64,000 bases of DNA from Candidatus Gottesmanbacteria bacterium (GTDB lineage Bacteria; Patescibacteriota; Microgenomatia; UBA10105; UBA927), in the NCBI GenBank assembly GCA_030679255.1, contig JAUXTO010000013.1, forward strand, positions 190,189 to 254,188, given 5' to 3'. Within the stretch, counting starts at the first letter, position 1; every line of letters begins with the position of its first letter. Under the pieces are notes generated by a model, which searched no databases, was not told the DNA's origin, and was given only the letters and a program-made list of their open reading frames with translations. Of the stretch, positions 2,489 through 56,337 are shown piece by piece. The position numbers and the translations under genes are program-made.

Positions 2489-3669
2489 GATATCCGTATC
2501 CTACCACCATTAGCGCGTTCATGCAAAAAGATTTTCCGGTAGAAAAAGAGCGGGGTGAGCAGTAAAATATTGATGACAATGAGTGCAACACGCGCATCAA
2601 ATCTGTCCGCAATCAACCCCACGGCGATAGAGCATATACCAAACACTCCATGTCCCAGTAACGCATTCAAGGAACCCATGGTTGCCCGCTGACTCTGAGT
2701 AAATTCTCTTTGAAAGAGCGACCCAAGCGCCACCGACCCTACACCAAAAAGTAAGGAGGGTATACTCATGAGCGCGGGAGACAGTACGGTAGGAAAAAGC
2801 AACGCGACAAAATTTATGATTCTATTGGATAATATTTCAAAATTAAGGACCTTATACGGCGTATACTTTGTGATGACTTTGCCCGCAAAATAATAACTTA
2901 TAGCTGCTCCGATGTTTCCAAGAAAAGATGCAATGCCAATCGCCCACAACGGCCATAGGGTTATGACAAAGGCAGAACGCAGTAAATATCCCGATTCCCC
3001 AAGTCCAAACCGAAGCGCCGATGCTATGGATAGCATACGAAGTTTGCGGTTTTGCACAAAATACTTCATCGATACAGATAAATGATGGAGTACGTTGGTG
3101 CTTTCGCTAGAAATTCGCTTAGGCTCGACGAGAAGTAGCGCAATGATGAATGCTCCAATTTGAGGGATAACGGATGCCCATATGACGAGTGCGTAGGACC
3201 GCGCTGCCAAGATACCGCCTATCACTGCCGCAATTGCAAGAGCAAGCTGAAACATGGAGCCGGTTTTTCCCAAATAGGTATGATACTCGTTCTCTTTTCC
3301 AATTTCCCGAAGCGTGTCGTGAAGAAGTGCATCATTATTGCCGCTATAAAACGCCCGTGATAATCCTTGAAATAATGAACCGGTTGCCAATACCCAATAT
3401 GATCCGCCAATTGCGTATAATAAAACACATGCAACCGCAGATAAAGCTCCTAATATCGTTGTTTTCTTTCTCCCGACTAAATCTGAAATAATACCCGTCG
3501 GAACTTCAAACATTGCGGACGAAACGTATGCGATGGAAAAAATACTCATCCCCAACGCATACGAACCGGTGACATGGGCAAAGTAAAGAATGGCCACCGG
3601 CGCAAAAAACACAAAGTCCGTGCAAAAATTCAACCACGACAGGAGTTTGATATTTTTCGCAATATGCAT
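2485..3669 (-). CDS. MFS transporter
   Basis: 12-TM-like hydrophobic profile, DLVGRKK motif; start moved to Met at 3669 because the longer ORF overlaps the convergent zinc-ribbon gene. Confidence 0.65.
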   Translation of the reverse strand: MHIAKNIKLLSWLNFCTDFVFFAPVAILYFAHVTGSYALGMSIFSIAYVSSAMFEVPTGIISDLVGRKKTTILGALSAVACVLLYAIGGSYWVLATGSLFQGLSRAFYSGNNDALLHDTLREIGKENEYHTYLGKTGSMFQLALAIAAVIGGILAARSYALVIWASVIPQIGAFIIALLLVEPKRISSESTNVLHHLSVSMKYFVQNRKLRMLSIASALRFGLGESGYLLRSAFVITLWPLWAIGIASFLGNIGAAISYYFAGKVITKYTPYKVLNFEILSNRIINFVALLFPTVLSPALMSIPSLLFGVGSVALGSLFQREFTQSQRATMGSLNALLGHGVFGICSIAVGLIADRFDARVALIVINILLLTPLFFYRKIFLHERANGGRIRIS

Positions 3670-13726: not shown

Positions 13727-14578
13727 TTAAACTGGAAGACGCAGGACACCGCGAGAGGAACGCTCTATGAGACCATCTTTGACCAGCGAGGCGATAATAG
13801 AGAGAAGGAATGCTACCGGCTTGGTGTACGTTTTTCCTAGCTCATTGAGAAACTTTTTTTCCGATATTTCTCCTTCCCGCAATCTATCAACTATGCGACC
13901 GCGATAATATCTATTTGAGTCTTTAAATGGTTTTTGCTTTTTCCTATTGGTCATTGGATATTGCCTGCCTGCCGGCGAGGCAGGGACATTGGTCATTGCC
14001 AACGCTCCATAGTCCATGAGTGCTTGGTGCCACTGCCAGGACTTGCCCGGCGGGATTAATTGGCGGGCAATATCTTCTATCTCCTTTTCCAAAGCCCGGC
14101 CTTGTGTCTGATCTTTCAAAAAGAAATGGGTAACAATCTGACGGATATTTGTATCGATAAGTGGGACTTCTTGCTCATATGCGAATACTAATAGTGCTCG
14201 AGCAGTATATATACCCAATCCCGGAAGATTACGCAGATCTTTCTCGGTTAATGGAAATATACCGTGATACTCTTCAACAATCATTTTTGCTGCTCTCTGC
14301 AGATACAATGCGCGGCGGTTATATCCCATCCCCTTCCAGATACGCAAAACGGCGCCGGGACTGGCATGGGCAAGAATTTTTATTGTAGGATACCGTTCGA
14401 TAAACTCACGGTACTTCGCGACGACGCGAAGTACCTGCGTTTGCTGAAGCATAACCTCCGAGACCATGATCCGGTAGGGATCACGCGTATGGCGCCATGG
14501 AAGATCACGACGATGAGTCTTCCACCACGAGAAAATCTTCTGTTGAAATGAAGTGATTTGTCTTTTAGTAAGCTTCAT
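13727..14578 (-). CDS. HhH-GPD base-excision DNA glycosylase (MutY/Nth family, no Fe-S cluster motif)
   Basis: MLQQTQV, LPGLGIYTA HhH-GPD motifs; no C-x6-C-x2-C-x5-C. Confidence 0.7.
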   Translation of the reverse strand: MKLTKRQITSFQQKIFSWWKTHRRDLPWRHTRDPYRIMVSEVMLQQTQVLRVVAKYREFIERYPTIKILAHASPGAVLRIWKGMGYNRRALYLQRAAKMIVEEYHGIFPLTEKDLRNLPGLGIYTARALLVFAYEQEVPLIDTNIRQIVTHFFLKDQTQGRALEKEIEDIARQLIPPGKSWQWHQALMDYGALAMTNVPASPAGRQYPMTNRKKQKPFKDSNRYYRGRIVDRLREGEISEKKFLNELGKTYTKPVAFLLSIIASLVKDGLIERSSRGVLRLPV

Positions 14579-16986: not shown

Positions 16987-18435
16987 ATGAAACCCGTACG
17001 TACGCGTATCGCGCCATCACCTACCGGCGAAAATCTCCACATTGGCAATGCCTATACGGCGCTTATCAACTACGTCGTTGCGAGACAAAACAACGGACAA
17101 TTCATTATCCGCATCGAAGACACAGACCGGACGCGGTTTGTAGAAGGATCAGAGACACGGATACTTGAGTCTCTCTCTTGGCTCGGCATCCCCCACGACG
17201 AAGGGCCGGATAACGGTGGCCCTTTTACTCCCTACAGGCAATCAGACCGCCTCGCTATCTACAAACAATATGCTGAAGAGTTAGTCAAAAAAGACCATGC
17301 CTACTACTGTTTCTGCACACCGGAACGCCTCAGCGCAATGAGGAAAGATCAGGAAGCACGGCATGAGGCGCCGAAGTATGATGGACACTGTAGAAAAGTC
17401 GAAAGTCGAAAGTCGCCTGCCCGCAATGCTACGCAAAGCGTTGCAGGCGGGAAAGTCGAAAGTGAAAAATATGTTATAAGACTCAAGGTTCCGGAAGAAG
17501 GGACGACAACATTCACCGATCTCATCCGGGGGGAGATTTCTTTTGAAAACAAGCTCATTGATGATCAGGTCATCCTCAAATCCGACGGGTATCCGACGTA
17601 TCACCTGGGGGTCGTCGTTGATGATCACCTCATGGAGATATCTCATATCATCCGCGGCGAAGAATGGATTTCCTCAACGCCAAAACACATCCTTCTCTAT
17701 AAATTTTTTGGGTGGGAGCCGCCGATCTATGCCCACATGCCGCTTCTGCGAAACCCGGATAAAAGCAAACTCTCAAAGAGAAAAAACCCGGTATGGGTGT
17801 CCTGGTACAAAGAGCAGGGATTTTTGCCTGAAGCCGTCGTCAATTATCTGGCAACGATTGCCTGGACGCATCCCGATGGAAAAGAATTATTTACGATTCT
17901 GGAAATGATACGCGTGTTTGATCTGAAAAAAATCCAAACCACGGCGCCTGTTTTTGATCTAGAAAAATTACGATGGATGAATGGAGAGTATCTAAGGCGA
18001 AGTCAAAAGTCACCTGCCCGCAATGCTACGCAAAGCGTTGCAGGCGGGAAAGTCAAAAGTCAAATCTTTGATTTTTATCATGGTAAATACGATGAAGCCA
18101 TAATAGAAAAAACTCTCTCTCTCGTAATTGAACGGATAAAAACACTGGGGGAATATGAGATGATGGCAGGATTTTTCTTTGAGAGACCTAAAGTATTCGA
18201 GCGGCCAATCAATAAAAAATTATTAACCATTGCCCAGGAAACCCTCGAAACCTGTATTTGGAATCATGACGCGATGGAAAAAGCTATACGGGAAGCGGCA
18301 GATAAGGCCAAAATGAAGGCAAAGGACGTATTTATGGAGCTTCGCGTGGCCGTCACCGGTAAAACCGTCGGACCACCACTCCTCGAGTCATTAGAACTAT
18401 TGGGAAAAGAGGAAACACTTACCCGTCTTTCTTAA
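16987..18435 (+). CDS. gltX: glutamyl-tRNA synthetase
   Basis: PSPTGENLHIGNAYTAL (HIGH) and KLSKR (KMSKS) motifs; two internal identical 14-aa segments KSPARNATQSVAGGKV. Confidence 0.9.
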   Translation: MKPVRTRIAPSPTGENLHIGNAYTALINYVVARQNNGQFIIRIEDTDRTRFVEGSETRILESLSWLGIPHDEGPDNGGPFTPYRQSDRLAIYKQYAEELVKKDHAYYCFCTPERLSAMRKDQEARHEAPKYDGHCRKVESRKSPARNATQSVAGGKVESEKYVIRLKVPEEGTTTFTDLIRGEISFENKLIDDQVILKSDGYPTYHLGVVVDDHLMEISHIIRGEEWISSTPKHILLYKFFGWEPPIYAHMPLLRNPDKSKLSKRKNPVWVSWYKEQGFLPEAVVNYLATIAWTHPDGKELFTILEMIRVFDLKKIQTTAPVFDLEKLRWMNGEYLRRSQKSPARNATQSVAGGKVKSQIFDFYHGKYDEAIIEKTLSLVIERIKTLGEYEMMAGFFFERPKVFERPINKKLLTIAQETLETCIWNHDAMEKAIREAADKAKMKAKDVFMELRVAVTGKTVGPPLLESLELLGKEETLTRLS

Positions 18436-25297: not shown

Positions 25298-27022
25298 TTA
25301 CACGATATGGATGTCTTTAATTTTAAGTTGAAGCCTGGAGCTGCCATTCCAGGTGTTCATGTCAATGGTATAAGCAAGGTCCACTTGTGCATCCTTCTGT
25401 AATGATCCATAGAGACTTCCTTGGTTAAAGGCTATTGCGTCCAAGAGATGAGTCGAATGGGGCTCATGGATCTCATGGGTCAGATGAATAGATGGGGAAA
25501 CCTTTAATTTGAGGTGCTTGCCGGTCGCGCCGACGAGGCGTGCTTCTTTGACAAGGAGGCATCTTGTCACAAAGACCGGCTCGGGATTACCGAAACCGAA
25601 TGGTTGAAATTGTTGGAGTGCCGTATATAACTCCATCGTCACGAACTCTAACGGAATTTCCGAATCGATTTTAAGCGAACGTGTCAGCATATCTTCCGTA
25701 ATTTCCTTTTTTGCCAATTGCTCGAGCCGCGCCTGCAACGATTCTAGATGCTTATTCTCAACAGTAAACCCTGCAGCCATCGGGTGTCCGCCGACGTCAA
25801 TGAGAATATCGCTGCACGCGCGGATCGCCTCGACAATATTAAATCCGCTGATCGATCGCGCCGATGCTTTACTGATACTCTCTCCTTTGCTTGCCACGAT
25901 CGCCGGCAGGTAATATTCTTCCATAAGTTTTCCCGCGACCAATCCGATCACGCCTGGGTTGTAGGATTCGTGGGAAACAAATAATAATTTCAATGATGAA
26001 TGCTGAATGATGAATGATGAAACAAGATTTTTGGCGTGGAGGACCGTCTCTTCTGTCAATTTTTGCCGGTCGCGGTTGGTCATTCCCAATTTTTCGGCAA
26101 GCATACTCGCTTTATCTTTTTGTTTCGTGCATAAAAGCCGGAGCGCGTCCATGGCGTGTTCGAGCCTGCCCATGGCGTTCAAGCGCGGAGCAAGCATGTG
26201 AGAAACGGTAAATACATCCAGAGCCCCACGGGTCAATCCTGCATCGGTCATGAGCGCCTCGAGCCCCACCCGTTTCGTATCATTGAGTGCAGCCAATCCA
26301 TATTTGACGATGGAACGGTTGGGACCGGTGAGCTGCACTAAATCTGCAATCGTTCCGATAGCCGCAAGAGCGATATGATCATTTAATGCTGAATGCTGAA
26401 TGCTCAATGATGAATGCTTTTGTAATTCCTTTGATAAAAACCAGGAAACGCCGGAACCAGAAAGCTTCGTCGTATGGACAATCGTGCAGTCCGGAAGTTT
26501 GTCGGGCTTGACGTGGTGGTCCGTAACAATGACTTCTATCCCCTTCTCTCGGGCATACTCTACTTTTTCCCATGCCGTAATCCCATGGTCAACGGTGATA
26601 ATGAGCGTTGGATCAAATTGTGCGCGTACTGCGTCTATTCCTTTTCGTGACAATCCATACCCTTCCTCTACCCTGTGGGGAATGTAAGGCATTGCACTCG
26701 CCCCCAAACTATGGAGCGTCTCCCACATGATGGCCCCCGCAGTGATGCCATCTGCGTCATAGTCTGCATAGACGACTATGGATTCTTTGTCCTGAATGGC
26801 TTTTTGGATGCGTTTGATGGCTTTGGAAAGCGAGGCCTTGTCTATACCAACGTCAGAGGCGGTAAGTTTGGAAGGATCGGGAGAATTCAGAAAGAGTTCG
26901 ATATCTTTTCTTGTCTTGAGCCCCCTATTTTTTAATAAAATCTTGACAATGTCTTCAACTTTCCCAGCCATAGGCTGGTCCGCCTCTGGCGGAGACTTGG
27001 CGGCAATTTCCCATTTCTTCAT
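25298..27022 (-). CDS. recJ: single-stranded-DNA-specific exonuclease RecJ
   Basis: DHH (VYADYDADGITAG, VDHGI) and DHHA1 motifs, C-terminal OB fold; contains two in-frame heptamer-repeat tracts. Confidence 0.85.
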   Translation of the reverse strand: MKKWEIAAKSPPEADQPMAGKVEDIVKILLKNRGLKTRKDIELFLNSPDPSKLTASDVGIDKASLSKAIKRIQKAIQDKESIVVYADYDADGITAGAIMWETLHSLGASAMPYIPHRVEEGYGLSRKGIDAVRAQFDPTLIITVDHGITAWEKVEYAREKGIEVIVTDHHVKPDKLPDCTIVHTTKLSGSGVSWFLSKELQKHSSLSIQHSALNDHIALAAIGTIADLVQLTGPNRSIVKYGLAALNDTKRVGLEALMTDAGLTRGALDVFTVSHMLAPRLNAMGRLEHAMDALRLLCTKQKDKASMLAEKLGMTNRDRQKLTEETVLHAKNLVSSFIIQHSSLKLLFVSHESYNPGVIGLVAGKLMEEYYLPAIVASKGESISKASARSISGFNIVEAIRACSDILIDVGGHPMAAGFTVENKHLESLQARLEQLAKKEITEDMLTRSLKIDSEIPLEFVTMELYTALQQFQPFGFGNPEPVFVTRCLLVKEARLVGATGKHLKLKVSPSIHLTHEIHEPHSTHLLDAIAFNQGSLYGSLQKDAQVDLAYTIDMNTWNGSSRLQLKIKDIHIV

Positions 27023-27045: not shown

Positions 27046-28440
27046 ATGATATCCCTTCCCAAAACAGCCCAGACTGTCATCGATACCCTCAAAAAAGCGG
27101 GGTTTGAAGCGTATGCAGTGGGAGGATCAGTGCGGGACACGATCATGGGAAGACCAACGAAAGGTTGGGACTTTACGACCAACGCAAAACCTGAGGAAGT
27201 ACTTGCGCTTTTTCCGGATAGTTTCTATGACAATCAGTTTGGGACGGTTGGAGTGAAAATATATAAGTCGTCAGTCGTCAGTCGTCAGTCGTCAGATGAA
27301 ATCGAAGATATCTACGAAATAACCACGTATAGAAGCGAGAAGGGATACACGGATCGGAGGCATCCGGATACCGTCATCTGGGGAAATACCATTGAGGAAG
27401 ATCTTGCCCGACGCGATTTTACGATCAATGCAATCGCCTCCGACGGACAAAAGCTCATCGATCCCTATGATGGACAAAAGGATCTCCATACAAAAATCAT
27501 CCGGTCAGTCGGTGATCCTAAAGATCGATTTGCAGAAGACGCCCTCCGTATGATGCGGGCCGTGAGACTGGCCGCTGAACTAGGATTTAGTATCGAAGAG
27601 TCAACTCTCGCCGGAATTACAACAAACGCCGGACTTTTGACGAATATTTCTCTGGAACGCATACGAGACGAACTTCTCAGGATCCTCGCCGCACAATTTG
27701 CTTCTGACGCAATCCTCGTGCTCAAAGCAACCGGCCTTCTTTCGCACATTATCCCGGAATTTGACGCGGCGTTTAGTACGCCACAAAAAAGTCCCAAACG
27801 CCACCATATCTACGATGTTGGTACCCACAGCGTGATGGCACTTAAATTTTGTCCCTCTGCTGATCCCATTGTACGGCTCGCGACACTTCTCCATGACATC
27901 GGTAAACCAAAAACCTTTCATAAAGACGAGACCGGTCTCATCACGTTTTATAACCATGAAGTCGCGGGAACGCGAATGGTGAGAACCATTGTAGAGCGCC
28001 TTCGGCTTTCTAAAAAACAAGCAGAACTCGTCCTCACGCTCGTCCGCTGGCATCAATTCAGTGTCGACGAACGCCAAACAGACGCGGCTCTCCGGCGGTT
28101 CATACGCCGCGTAGGCAAAGAGAATCTGGAAGCTATGTTGGCCCTACGGATCGGAGACCGTTTAGGTGGCGGAGCGCTCGAGACGTCGTGGCGGCTTGAA
28201 CTTTATAAAAAACGTCTGGTGGAGGTTCAAAAACAACCCTTTACGGTCCACGACCTCCTCGTCGACGGCCATGATGTGATGAGCGAGCTCAGGGTGAAAC
28301 CCGGACCCATCATTGGAAAAATCTTAGATCAATTGTTCGCCGAAGTTGAAAAAGGCACACTCACAAATAAACGGGAGGCTCTGTTGAATCGAATAAAAGA
28401 GCTTAAATCTACGAATTATGAATCTACGAATAATAATTAG
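27046..28440 (+). CDS. cca: CCA-adding tRNA nucleotidyltransferase with HD domain
   Basis: AYAVGGSVRD...GWDFTT PolBeta-NT head, HD motif LLHDIGK. Confidence 0.8.
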   Translation: MISLPKTAQTVIDTLKKAGFEAYAVGGSVRDTIMGRPTKGWDFTTNAKPEEVLALFPDSFYDNQFGTVGVKIYKSSVVSRQSSDEIEDIYEITTYRSEKGYTDRRHPDTVIWGNTIEEDLARRDFTINAIASDGQKLIDPYDGQKDLHTKIIRSVGDPKDRFAEDALRMMRAVRLAAELGFSIEESTLAGITTNAGLLTNISLERIRDELLRILAAQFASDAILVLKATGLLSHIIPEFDAAFSTPQKSPKRHHIYDVGTHSVMALKFCPSADPIVRLATLLHDIGKPKTFHKDETGLITFYNHEVAGTRMVRTIVERLRLSKKQAELVLTLVRWHQFSVDERQTDAALRRFIRRVGKENLEAMLALRIGDRLGGGALETSWRLELYKKRLVEVQKQPFTVHDLLVDGHDVMSELRVKPGPIIGKILDQLFAEVEKGTLTNKREALLNRIKELKSTNYESTNNN

Positions 28441-42867: not shown

Positions 42868-42927
42868 ATCAACATTGTAGCAATAACAAAAAATAATTTA
42901 TAGGAGTTTAAAGGAATTTAAAGGAGT

Positions 42928-43677
42928 TTATGAAAGAATGAACTTTTCTATGACGGTTGCAACGCCGTCCTCATCAACAGAAGGCGCGATAAAGTCTGCA
43001 ATTGCTTTGAGTTGCGGTACTGCATTTCCCATAGCGATTTTCAGACCACACGCGGAAAGTAGCGGATAATCATTATAACTATCCCCGACACCAATTATTT
43101 CATCTGTTCGTATTTTTAATAATTCTGCAATCCTTACAACCGCATGAAGTTTTGTCGCAAGCGCGTTTGACACTGATGCCCAGAATAAGCCTTTTTTAAA
43201 CGATGGATTTTTATGTACTGCGATACCTTGTATTTTTGTTAAGTGTTCTATCAGCTTATCAACAGTAGATTCTGATAAATCAGGCATTGCTATATCAGTC
43301 AGAGTATCCGGCCAGGGTCCCCCTGTATACTCATATTCTTTTTCCCCTTCACCGATAAGCACAACTTCGGGTTTGTATTGTTTTATTATCCTGTATGCCT
43401 GATCTGCAATGCCATGATCCAGAGAAATCGTGTCAATGATGGTGTCATCGGCTGCATTATATAATTGCGTCGAATCATGAACCGAACACAAGCTGTTAAG
43501 ACCTAATTCCTTGATCACGCGCTTGGCAATAAAAAGCGGTCTCCCCGTGGCAACGCAAACATGCGTCTGTTTTTGTGCCAGACCAATGGTTTCCAACACC
43601 CGAACGCTAGGATGAGAATCAATACCCAATGGAATGGTGGTACCATCCAAATCTAAAATAATCGCTTTATATTTCAT
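42928..43677 (-). CDS. Cof-type HAD-IIB hydrolase
   Basis: AIILDLDGT motif I, GDSYND motif IV. Confidence 0.7.
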   Translation of the reverse strand: MKYKAIILDLDGTTIPLGIDSHPSVRVLETIGLAQKQTHVCVATGRPLFIAKRVIKELGLNSLCSVHDSTQLYNAADDTIIDTISLDHGIADQAYRIIKQYKPEVVLIGEGEKEYEYTGGPWPDTLTDIAMPDLSESTVDKLIEHLTKIQGIAVHKNPSFKKGLFWASVSNALATKLHAVVRIAELLKIRTDEIIGVGDSYNDYPLLSACGLKIAMGNAVPQLKAIADFIAPSVDEDGVATVIEKFILS

Positions 43678-43759
43678 AACGGCATTGTAGCAATACCAAA
43701 GAATAATTTATAGGAGTTTAAAGGAGTTTAAGGGAATCTAGAAAAAAATGAACGACTAG

Positions 43760-49809: not shown

Positions 49810-49886
49810 TACATCAATTCAAAAAATTAAAAGTCGAAAGTCATAAAGTCAAAAGTCCATAACGTTATAAAAGTGAAATGTGGAGT

Positions 49887-55188: not shown

Positions 55189-55229
55189 AAAAACGGATCT
55201 CTACTGGAAATAGGTGAGATCCTTTTTTG
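55189..55229 (-). terminator. bidirectional terminator GGATCTC-loop-GAGATCC with A5/T6 flanks
   Basis: overlaps DUF3800 stop codon. Confidence 0.55.
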
Positions 55230-55983
55230 TAACTTCGGGGAAAAATTTGAGACCAATCCCGTCTACGATATTCCCTTTGCGGTGTAATTTGGGATGCGTG
55301 ACGTCGTGATACCGCCAGTAATCCTCTTTTTTCTTGTTGTACTCAAACACATGGTACACAGGATAGCAGTAAAGATCAGTAATCTGGATGCCTACTGTTT
55401 TGTCGGATGTGGAAAATAAAACGCGCTCAATAATATTAGGGCACTTTTGCCAAAACCCATTTTCATTCCAACGAAGCAAGCTATGAATGCGATCAAGTTC
55501 CGGTCCTATATAGCTTTTTTCCACTTGACCCTCACGTGGATCAATAATACAAATGCCGAATGCATTTTGTTCTTTAAGATACATTTGGAATCGCTCCATC
55601 AAGAATATATAGGCAATCTCGTACGGATTTTGCGATGGATACTGTTTCCAATACCCAACTTTATCAATCACGACAGAAAAAACTGTCACTGGGATTTTTT
55701 TAAGAAAAGTAGCAACGTCTACTTCTAGCTCATCATATTTTTGTCGATCGTTGAGCTTAATCGGTGAAGACTGTGCAAGATCTGGATTGGCATATCGAAG
55801 AAAATTTGATTTGAACTCAACTTCAGGATTTTGATAGTAACTCAGTTTAATGTCACGAAACGAACTTTCGATAGCCACTTTATCACTCTCATTGATTACG
55901 CAACCTGTAAGGACTAAAAATTTCTTTCCTTTTTGTGAAAGAGAAATCGTATCGCCGGACTCATCAATATACATGATCTGCAT
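55201..55983 (-). CDS. DUF3800 family protein
   Basis: MQIMYIDESGD N-terminus characteristic of DUF3800; GAGGG SD; start trimmed from the longer ORF. Confidence 0.55.
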   Translation of the reverse strand: MQIMYIDESGDTISLSQKGKKFLVLTGCVINESDKVAIESSFRDIKLSYYQNPEVEFKSNFLRYANPDLAQSSPIKLNDRQKYDELEVDVATFLKKIPVTVFSVVIDKVGYWKQYPSQNPYEIAYIFLMERFQMYLKEQNAFGICIIDPREGQVEKSYIGPELDRIHSLLRWNENGFWQKCPNIIERVLFSTSDKTVGIQITDLYCYPVYHVFEYNKKKEDYWRYHDVTHPKLHRKGNIVDGIGLKFFPEVTKKDLTYFQ

Positions 55984-56337
55984 AATTACCCTCAAGTATA
56001 CCACCAAATTTTTGCGATAAAAATGGCGGCTCTGCCGACCCCGCCACTCGGGTGGTACCTTCCAAAAAAAGATCAACCGTGGAAAAGACAACTGAGTTGC
56101 CCGACGCTTCGTATGGGCGGCTCTTTCGCACAAAGGTGGGGTCGCCGCCCTGCCTGCCGGCAGGCAGGCATCCTTTTTGAGCCGGGTGGGTGGGCTGATT
56201 GGAATCAGGACAGACTGATTTTGTGTTATTATAAATCTTACCGCACGCGAATCCGCCAGCAGGCAGATGAACGGAACGCGCGCTAAAAAAACGGAATCAA
56301 GGCCGCGTTTACCCTGAGCGAAGTCGAGGGGAAGCGA

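Follow-up and report, generated by a model that had tools for sequence, protein, structure and literature searches.

A short sequence that stands twice, letter for letter, within the gene of an essential enzyme raises the question of how it came to be there and how it is tolerated. Such a case is found in gltX, the glutamyl-tRNA synthetase (GluRS) gene carried by a 64,000-nucleotide stretch of contig JAUXTO010000013.1 from a Candidatus Gottesmanbacteria bacterium (assembly GCA_030679255.1), which in its full length is called the window below. An earlier reading, made from the sequence alone, had described a 42-bp in-frame core flanked by AAAGTCR heptamers and had likened it to the Rickettsia palindromic elements (RPEs). 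In this work we compared the gene with its orthologues and searched for further copies of the repeat. We show that the two repeats are separate, recent and duplication-free insertions of a 36-nt hairpin into gltX, and that this hairpin belongs to a mobile family spread over the Candidate Phyla Radiation (CPR; Patescibacteria).

Two insertions of a 36-nt hairpin in gltX

Two exact copies of the 42-mer CCTGCCCGCAATGCTACGCAAAGCGTTGCAGGCGGGAAAGTC are present in the window, at 17416-17457 and 18013-18054, against none across 100 dinucleotide-preserving shuffles of it. The sequence-only reading had located the second site correctly and the first 2 nt off, at 17414-17455. Similarity stretches to 65 nt (17403-17467 against 18000-18064) with 94% identity and a spacing of 597 nt, and the mismatches between the copies are confined to the flanking heptamers. 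Both lie within a single open reading frame (ORF) on the + strand, 16987-18435, which encodes a GluRS of 482 aa with the domains PF00749 (tRNA-synt_1c) and PF19269 (Anticodon_2). Its translation bears out that the two sites share one frame; the peptide KSPARNATQSVAGGKV is thus present twice in the enzyme. The protein aligns with Thermus thermophilus GluRS (PDB 1j09) with E=3.9e-126 and is 100% identical to P0001, a protein annotated in a Candidatus Gottesmanbacteria metagenome-assembled genome (MAG).

Presence and absence of the repeat were judged from protein alignments of 16 and 80 orthologues and from the codon-level DNA of four. The orthologue DNA defines the inserted unit as a 36-nt imperfect hairpin, CCTGCCCGCAATGCTACGCAAAGCGTTGCAGGCGGG, of 12 codons encoding PARNATQSVAGG. 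Copy 1 occupies 17416-17451 (+ strand, residues 144-155) and copy 2 18013-18048 (+ strand, residues 343-354), and the two are identical at 36/36 positions. At site 1, P0002 and P0016 read ...KS followed directly by KVKSEKYVIRL, and the window protein is 12 residues longer there. At site 2, RRSQKS is joined directly to KVKSQIF in P0004, P0005, P0006 and P0014, where the window has RRSQKS-PARNATQSVAGG-KVKSQIF. Occupied sites exceed the empty ones by exactly 36 nt, neither of them has a target-site duplication, and each insertion splits a heptamer array at the same phase, after ...GTCR and before AAAGTC.... Because the empty sites of the relatives are uninterrupted arrays, and those of the window are the same arrays split by exactly 36 nt, the element is the 36-nt hairpin only. 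The AAAGTCR flanks and the last six bases of the 42-mer are, judged from these alignments, host sequence and not element termini. The repeat described by the sequence-only reading was therefore real and its extent too wide, the heptamers being host arrays in the relatives.

The closest orthologues (82-86% identity) carry the peptide at neither site, which, with the 36/36 identity of the two copies, argues that the insertions are recent. In the alignment of 80, none of the 79 other orthologues has the exact 36-nt core at either site, and the length at site 2 is the uninserted one in 74/80. Site 1 of P0014 holds a long form related to the core, of 57 nt. The segments are thus lineage-specific insertions, and the ancestral peptide without other genomic copies that the earlier reading had named as the contrary outcome was not found.

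The hairpin has the layout CCTGCCCGCAATGCT-ACGCAA-AGCGTTGCAGGCGGG, that is, two 15-nt arms paired at 14/15 positions around a 6-nt loop. Alone it folds at about -23 kcal/mol (copy 1: -22.8 kcal/mol), and in a 79-nt context the two copies give z-scores of -3.4 and -4.5, significantly more stable than shuffles. It is GC-rich, free of stop codons in the gltX frame and read there as P-ARNATQSVA-GG. A scan of 17300-18150 against Rfam gave weak chance-level matches only, such as ceN88 over copy 2 (E=4.8), which scored 13.9 bits where the gathering score is 40.

Both insertion sites fall in gapped, variable stretches of the alignment to T. thermophilus GluRS, in keeping with the proposal that they are linkers variable in other GluRS. 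An AlphaFold2 model of the window enzyme has a mean pLDDT of 91.5, with values <50 only at residues 148-157 and 346-352, the segments that correspond to the inserts and are flanked by well-predicted elements. The inserts are accordingly predicted to be disordered surface loops on an otherwise confidently folded enzyme, the location that the earlier reading had expected. It had also suggested that the two copies could mediate a deletion of about 600 bp. The span holds, at 597 nt or 199 codons; recombination between the copies would keep the frame and remove the KMSKS-type loop (KLSKRK), so the product would probably be a dead enzyme and the deletion lethal.

Heptamer arrays at the insertion sites

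A pattern search found AAAGTCR heptamers on both sides of each copy, as described. On the + strand, copy 1 is preceded by (AAAGTCG)x3 at 17395-17415 (also detected by Tandem Repeats Finder (TRF); encodes KVESRKS) and followed at 17452-17465 by AAAGTCGAAAGTGA (pattern search and orthologue DNA; encodes KVESE). Copy 2 is preceded at 17999-18012 by GAAGTCAAAAGTCA (pattern search; encodes SQKS) and followed at 18049-18064 by AAAGTCAAAAGTCAAA (orthologue DNA; encodes KVKSQ). The corresponding arrays are unbroken in relatives, (AAGTCAA)~4.5 at site 1 of P0002 and (AGTCAAA)x4 at site 2 of P0005 and P0014.

The orthologues have perfect arrays of differing units at these two sites, including AAAGTCA, AAAACTC, AATTCAA, CAGCAGA and NATCAGC. 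The length of the segment is conserved across them, and the arrays therefore replace ancestral sequence in place; the units of site 1 all end in G in the window and in A in P0002, which implies concerted change. Among the 80 orthologues, extra inserts at the two sites occur only where the site is of the heptamer type. P0014 has, besides the 57-nt long core form, a 21-nt CCTGCCTCGCCGGCAGGCAGG; P0010 carries a different 36-nt GC-rich insert, and P0008, P0016, P0019 and P0046 have further inserts. Hairpin copies with AAAGTCA-type heptamers on both sides share one phase, namely the two of the window, L010, L013, two at L017 (one of these loci was recovered again as L102) and L071. Heptamer arrays thus seem to be favoured by GC hairpins as places of insertion.

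The sequence-only reading had also counted two intergenic AAAGTC clusters as kin of the element. Both exist, one between rny and hup at 49829-49857 (+ strand; TRF and pattern search) and one between infA and rpsM at 63030-63100 (pattern search). They share only the host heptamer with the gltX sites; the core is absent from both.

A hairpin family across the CPR

Searches for other copies returned many, in unrelated genes and genomes. The 36-mer or its single-base variants stand at at least 140 distinct sites in CPR genomes and metagenomes, and this and the other counts given here, obtained by exact-pattern scans, are lower bounds. An exact 30-mer of the core was found at 22 loci in species-representative genomes; the six end bases outside the query are almost invariant across these loci, and the flanks are unrelated. 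A metagenome scan that left the inner stem free gave >120 loci among the matches listed. The host lineages comprise Nomura-, Woese-, Davies-, Portnoy- and Moraniibacteria, Saccharibacteria and others. Four core-bearing contigs (L003, L005, L006 and L020) come from MAGs titled 'uncultured Gammaproteobacteria', which may mean either a wider host range or CPR contigs that were mislabelled or mis-binned. Together with the empty sites in the GluRS orthologues, the copies in unrelated genes and genomes uphold the idea of a small repeat family that inserts in frame in the manner of RPEs.

Two master variants dominate: ...GCATTGC... accounts for 78 copies and ...GCAATGC..., the form in the window, for 35. 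The remaining variants are scattered point changes that do not compensate one another, and the commonest variant adds a mismatch to the stem. Identical copies are carried by independent assemblies, among them a Sanger-era record (AACY...). No exact copy was present in IMG/VR, and blastn gave no match in phage or plasmid collections.

Copies also occur in each other's company. Some sit within another copy, in four cases exactly at its dyad centre. Head-to-tail 36-nt units were noticed at L009 (two, 3563-3628) and in protein P0241 (at least three, translated as PARNATHSVAGG repeats). About 13 copies are lodged in partial tRNA copies, within the D-, T- or anticodon loop, and each such partial copy adjoins an intact copy of the same tRNA. 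We considered whether the core interrupts functional tRNA genes in the manner of an intron, and rejected this: ARAGORN, run on core-deleted sequence, places an intact tRNA beside the partial copy and none spanning the junction. Among 20 non-coding loci no copy lies within rRNA, and one lies ~140 nt past the 3' end of a 16S gene. When ORFs within 4 kb were clustered, no family recurred in more than 8 of ~146 loci, so that solo copies have no recurrent neighbour at this distance.

Copies within protein genes

Open frames of 150 aa or more hold 62 of the 140 unique sites, unambiguously in 51 cases and ambiguously in 11. The 51 unambiguous copies are strongly biased. Sense orientation was found in 47, and 39 are in sense frame 0, which reads PAR[N/I]ATQSVAGG (chi-square p=2e-21); a second sense frame, reading LPAMLRKALQAG, accounts for 6 copies, the third for 2, and antisense copies number 4. 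Frame 0 aside, antisense and sense counts are thus similar, and the most plausible cause of the bias is for this reason selection for the one peptide that is hydrophilic and has Pro and Gly-Gly at its ends. It would reflect purifying selection on random insertions, the frame used in gltX being the hydrophilic one of five open frames. The bias also indicates that the insert is read through and translated. A self-splicing intron or an intein was rejected on this ground, and also on the lack of an Rfam family over the hairpins and on a size, 36 nt or 12 aa, that is far too small.

Other host proteins are leucyl-tRNA synthetase (LeuRS), LepA, sigma-70 and an AddA-like helicase-nuclease. In LeuRS the insertion is exactly 12 residues long and lies at a non-repeat site, with PARIATQSVAGG placed between ...NEQVI and DGKCERC.... 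A census based on the peptide yielded 489 word-sharing candidates only.

A GIY-YIG nuclease cassette in tRNA genes

The clustering of ORFs at up to 4 kb from a core brought out a small GIY-YIG ORF (PF01541, E=5e-15). In 1.0 Mb of collected DNA a hidden Markov model (HMM) scan detected 12 GIY-YIG ORFs, of which 11 have a core at most 500 nt away; the ~730 kb lying farther than 1 kb from a core holds none. The closest solved relatives of the nuclease are the UPF0213 proteins 1zg2 and 1ywl.

These ORFs are part of a cassette with a constant order: a 5' tRNA fragment of ~19-24 nt split by the hairpin, the remainder of the D-loop, an ATG and the ~79-aa GIY-YIG ORF, and an intact tRNA of the same kind. 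The intact tRNA is mostly tRNA-Gln(CTG), and Asn, Lys, Met, Gly and Ile also occur. The hairpin lies 7-20 nt ahead of the start codon of the GIY-YIG ORF. Cassettes of this kind were found at L147, L149-L157, L128, L135, L085, L035, L124 and L134.

We further collected 820 homologues of the nuclease, and those with a named source are all of CPR type. Of 25 over-long gene calls in this set, about 22 run through a core-like hairpin right before the true Met. In six homologues sampled without regard to the core, all six had a core or near-core hairpin together with the unit of tRNA fragment, nuclease and tRNA. Each of these six cassettes has a single adjacent hairpin and not a pair at its two ends, and GIY-YIG enzymes are not known as transposases. 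The hairpin lies between tRNA nt ~7 and ~12 in these six tRNA-Gln cassettes and at up to ~18 elsewhere, in varying orientation. Such variation speaks for recurrent insertion next to the nuclease gene and against one inherited event.

Some cassettes depart from the simple order. The GIY-YIG stop codon is within a tRNA D-loop at L153 and L157, the latter with two such ORFs in tandem, and additional hairpin copies stand ahead of further tRNA-Gln copies at L155 and L156. At L067 (3178-3440) and L084 (85-345), other short GC hairpins, TCCGCCAAAGGCGGA, GTCGCCATAGGCGAC and GGGCCCGGCAAAGCCGGATC, occupy tRNA fragments upstream of GIY-YIG ORFs, which suggests a wider class of hairpin inserts.

How the hairpin may spread

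We think it probable that the element is a selfish 36-nt hairpin of the RPE kind, recently inserted in frame, with the GIY-YIG nuclease as candidate mobiliser. The stand-alone enzyme of ~79 aa, related to UPF0213, would be the best candidate for the mobilising activity, and the hairpin would be a non-autonomous partner of the nuclease cassette, comparable to a miniature inverted-repeat transposable element (MITE). Within a genome it may spread between arrays of one heptamer, which would offer it either a preferred landing site or a short stretch of homology; the two hits in one gene would then be accounted for. If the hairpin depended on being recognised by a conserved enzyme, its near-invariant sequence across phyla would likewise be understandable. 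More tentatively, and with rather less than even confidence, the hairpin and the ~79-aa ORF can be seen as one unrecognised mobile system, in which a structure-specific nuclease colonises tRNA genes and mobilises the hairpin in trans. On colonising a tRNA gene the nuclease would regenerate an intact tRNA beside the displaced fragment. The hairpin mobilised in trans would land without duplication in tRNA-gene loops, in other hairpins and in tolerated frames of essential genes.

Several observations weigh against a nuclease-driven selfish hairpin. The pattern scans favour unmutated copies. Most hairpin copies lie outside heptamer arrays, and the insertion sites overall have a weak target preference only, with A before and (G/C)AA after the insertion point. 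A general preference for hairpin apexes had been considered and was rejected, as the sites did not differ from control positions (p=0.25); it holds for the tRNA-fragment and nested subsets only. Within the 64-kb window the HMM scan detected neither a GIY-YIG gene nor a transposase of whatever type. The GC hairpins in the fragments of L067 and L084 are not the core. The link between solo copies and nuclease is correlative, and the hairpin may merely accumulate or persist in a dead tRNA fragment; it may, for example, be retained there because interrupting a direct repeat stabilises the cassette. Finally, we know of no mechanism by which a GIY-YIG nuclease inserts a defined 36-mer without duplication.

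Spread could also be passive, with no dedicated enzyme, through homology or microhomology, by gene conversion or template switching between arrays and by uptake of fragments between genomes, CPR bacteria being naturally competent. The tRNA sequence would then provide homology across lineages, and the GIY-YIG link would be survivorship in non-essential tRNA fragments. Exact boundaries without target-site duplication, the one heptamer phase shared by AAAGTCA-array copies in several genomes, the strong enrichment in partial tRNA copies beside intact tRNAs and the lack of a recurrent enzyme gene beside solo copies all fit this. We nevertheless consider it unlikely, as most intragenic sites are unique, with no evident donor homology, and the hairpin is near-invariant although its flanks differ wholly between genomes. 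Beside GIY-YIG genes, its changing position and orientation look like repeated local insertion. In gltX, the heptamer units of the two copies differ throughout (G against A), so that a conversion tract would have to be limited to the core. Recombination alone would account well for the tRNA and array contexts and poorly for the unique coding sites. A dedicated enzyme of another type would be an IS200-type HUH tyrosine (Y1) transposase, or REP-associated tyrosine transposase (RAYT), acting in trans on single-stranded DNA on a hairpin resembling the repetitive extragenic palindromic (REP) sequences. A 36-nt imperfect palindrome inserted without target-site duplication is what such an enzyme would move, Y1_Tnp (PF01797) ORFs lie at up to 4 kb from the core in 7 loci, and one of these ORFs scores 32.8 bits with the NCBIfam model REP_Tyr_transpos, whose cut-off is 80. 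These genes are nevertheless 0.5-7 kb away and never flank the core, and no core-like sequence or shared hairpin occurs within 400 nt of any of the 7 ORFs, so that the RAYT architecture was rejected. Their excess in density is small (7 per 666 kb near cores against 1 per 313 kb farther off), many copies are intragenic (the 62 of 140 above), and the GTAG motif is in the hairpin loop, on the complementary strand, and not at the foot. Movement by a Y1 enzyme is very unlikely on these grounds, and a GIY-YIG nuclease appears a likelier mobiliser than either a Y1 transposase or plain recombination.

The strong bias to one frame and to sense orientation invites yet another explanation, in which the insert serves the host as a flexible P...GG protein loop, or as a hairpin in the mRNA with an effect on its translation or stability, and was recruited repeatedly. 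Its position 7-20 nt before the GIY-YIG start, where the G-rich 3' arm could sequester a Shine-Dalgarno-like sequence, would agree with the latter. Yet the host proteins are unrelated, the inserts occupy unrelated and poorly conserved positions in them and are predicted to be disordered, and the closest orthologues work without one. Many copies are intergenic, nested, in tandem or in dead tRNA fragments, the point variants are non-compensatory, and the commonest variant has a weaker stem. A host function is, for these reasons, hardly credible. Lastly, the repeats in gltX could be inherited from an ancestral GluRS, have arisen by duplication within the gene or be an artefact of assembly, given that the exact GluRS is on one contig only in the protein database. 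This is effectively refuted by the 79 orthologues without the exact core and the 74/80 of uninserted length at site 2, by identical copies in independent assemblies from many studies and platforms, by the preservation of the frame by both inserts and by point variants that show a family evolving in nature. The selfish hairpin with a nuclease as putative partner thus stays the explanation that we prefer.

Relation to known elements

To our knowledge no mobilising enzyme has been identified for in-frame palindromic elements, RPEs included. RPEs are palindromic families that stand in frame in unrelated, often essential genes, are translated and are compatible with folding, and a review of them names no mobilising enzyme (PMC10969869). 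The CPR hairpin resembles them in being palindromic and in frame in protein genes such as those of GluRS and LeuRS. It differs in size and host range, RPEs being ~100-150 bp and confined to Rickettsia and the CPR element 36 nt and near-identical across CPR phyla. These two properties, and not an alignment to an RPE consensus, set it outside the RPE family. It is further distinguished by the link to a nuclease gene in the cassette copies. No target-site duplication was found for the CPR hairpin.

With MITEs the hairpin shares shortness, multiple copies, a non-autonomous character, inverted-repeat arms (14/15 paired), presence and absence between relatives and a putative protein-coding partner that carries the same sequence. 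Unlike them it makes no target-site duplication (exactly 36 nt in gltX, exactly 12 residues in LeuRS), its 36 nt are below the usual range of 50-500 bp, and the candidate partner is a GIY-YIG ORF with a single hairpin, not an insertion sequence with matching terminal repeats. REPs are comparable as imperfect palindromes of 20-40 nt inserted without duplication. They are mainly extragenic and number hundreds per genome, whereas the CPR hairpin is often in open frames and, with two copies in the 64 kb of the window, seems sparse, and none of the 7 Y1_Tnp ORFs is a RAYT gene flanked by its copies.

A free-standing GIY-YIG homing endonuclease gene, segB, lies in a tRNA gene cluster of phage T4 (PMC2330249). 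The CPR cassette is similar, from its gene architecture alone, in that a small ORF lies in tRNA-gene DNA and a selfish-like unit recurs at several tRNA genes. In contrast to such enzymes, the CPR protein of ~79 aa is a nuclease core without a DNA-binding domain, and the cassette duplicates ~19-24 nt of the tRNA 5' end and carries a hairpin that is also present as solo copies. The GC clusters of yeast mitochondria and the double-hairpin elements of Allomyces are likewise short GC-rich mobile palindromes in AT-richer genomes, occasionally in frame. They are organellar, eukaryotic and unrelated in sequence to the CPR hairpin, and we know neither of a mechanism established for them nor of a linked nuclease cassette of this kind. 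A search of the full-text literature, literal sequence strings included, yielded no account of either the hairpin or the GIY-YIG/tRNA cassette, and recent work on Patescibacteria tRNA genes deals with group I introns; the hairpin is apparently undescribed before.

In our reading the hairpin is a selfish micro-element that is tolerated in, and reshapes, even very small CPR genomes, adding an identical loop of 12 residues to essential enzymes, among them GluRS, LeuRS, LepA and sigma-70. It can serve as a marker for recent DNA movement between CPR lineages and as a natural experiment on protein sites that tolerate insertions. It also gives rise to annotation artefacts, namely GIY-YIG gene calls that are too long and housekeeping proteins with odd "insertions". 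The link to a tiny nuclease lodged in tRNA genes offers a testable handle on the movement of in-frame palindromic elements, and the pair may, with a probability that is not negligible, represent a mobile system of a new kind.

Other repeats and inserts

Seven nucleotides are the commonest tandem-repeat period in the window, in coding and intergenic DNA, with units repeated 3-5 times; further arrays are at 25992-26021, 26385-26418 and 27264-27295. Identical 35-nt (TATCAGC)x5 arrays stand in the ribosomal-protein/rpoA cluster at 60527-60561 (rpoA-rplQ gap) and 63219-63253 (infA-rpsM gap), and the latter is directly followed by a CTGATGA-type array in opposite orientation at 63258-63287. The TATCAGC unit also encodes GluRS site 2 of the orthologue P0002. 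The 21-nt CCTGCCTCGCCGGCAGGCAGG seen in the gltX of P0014 (L025) recurs identically at 13964-13984 of the window, where it encodes PASPAGR in an HhH-GPD glycosylase-like ORF (13727-14578, - strand) and is embedded in an ATTGGTC/AATGACC array. A 10-nt unit, TTTAAAGGAG, is repeated about three times in each of two successive intergenic gaps of a row of minus-strand genes, 42897-42930 and 43707-43735.

A tRNA match of Rfam at L103 (2980-3124, - strand) extends over 145 nt for a model of 71 positions, with an insert of ~70 nt that is not the core and may be an intron or another insertion. At 56149-56168 the window holds a perfect 20-nt palindrome, CCTGCCTGCCGGCAGGCAGG, at or just upstream of the 5' end of ORF 55201-56133 (- strand), with stem ends as in the core family.

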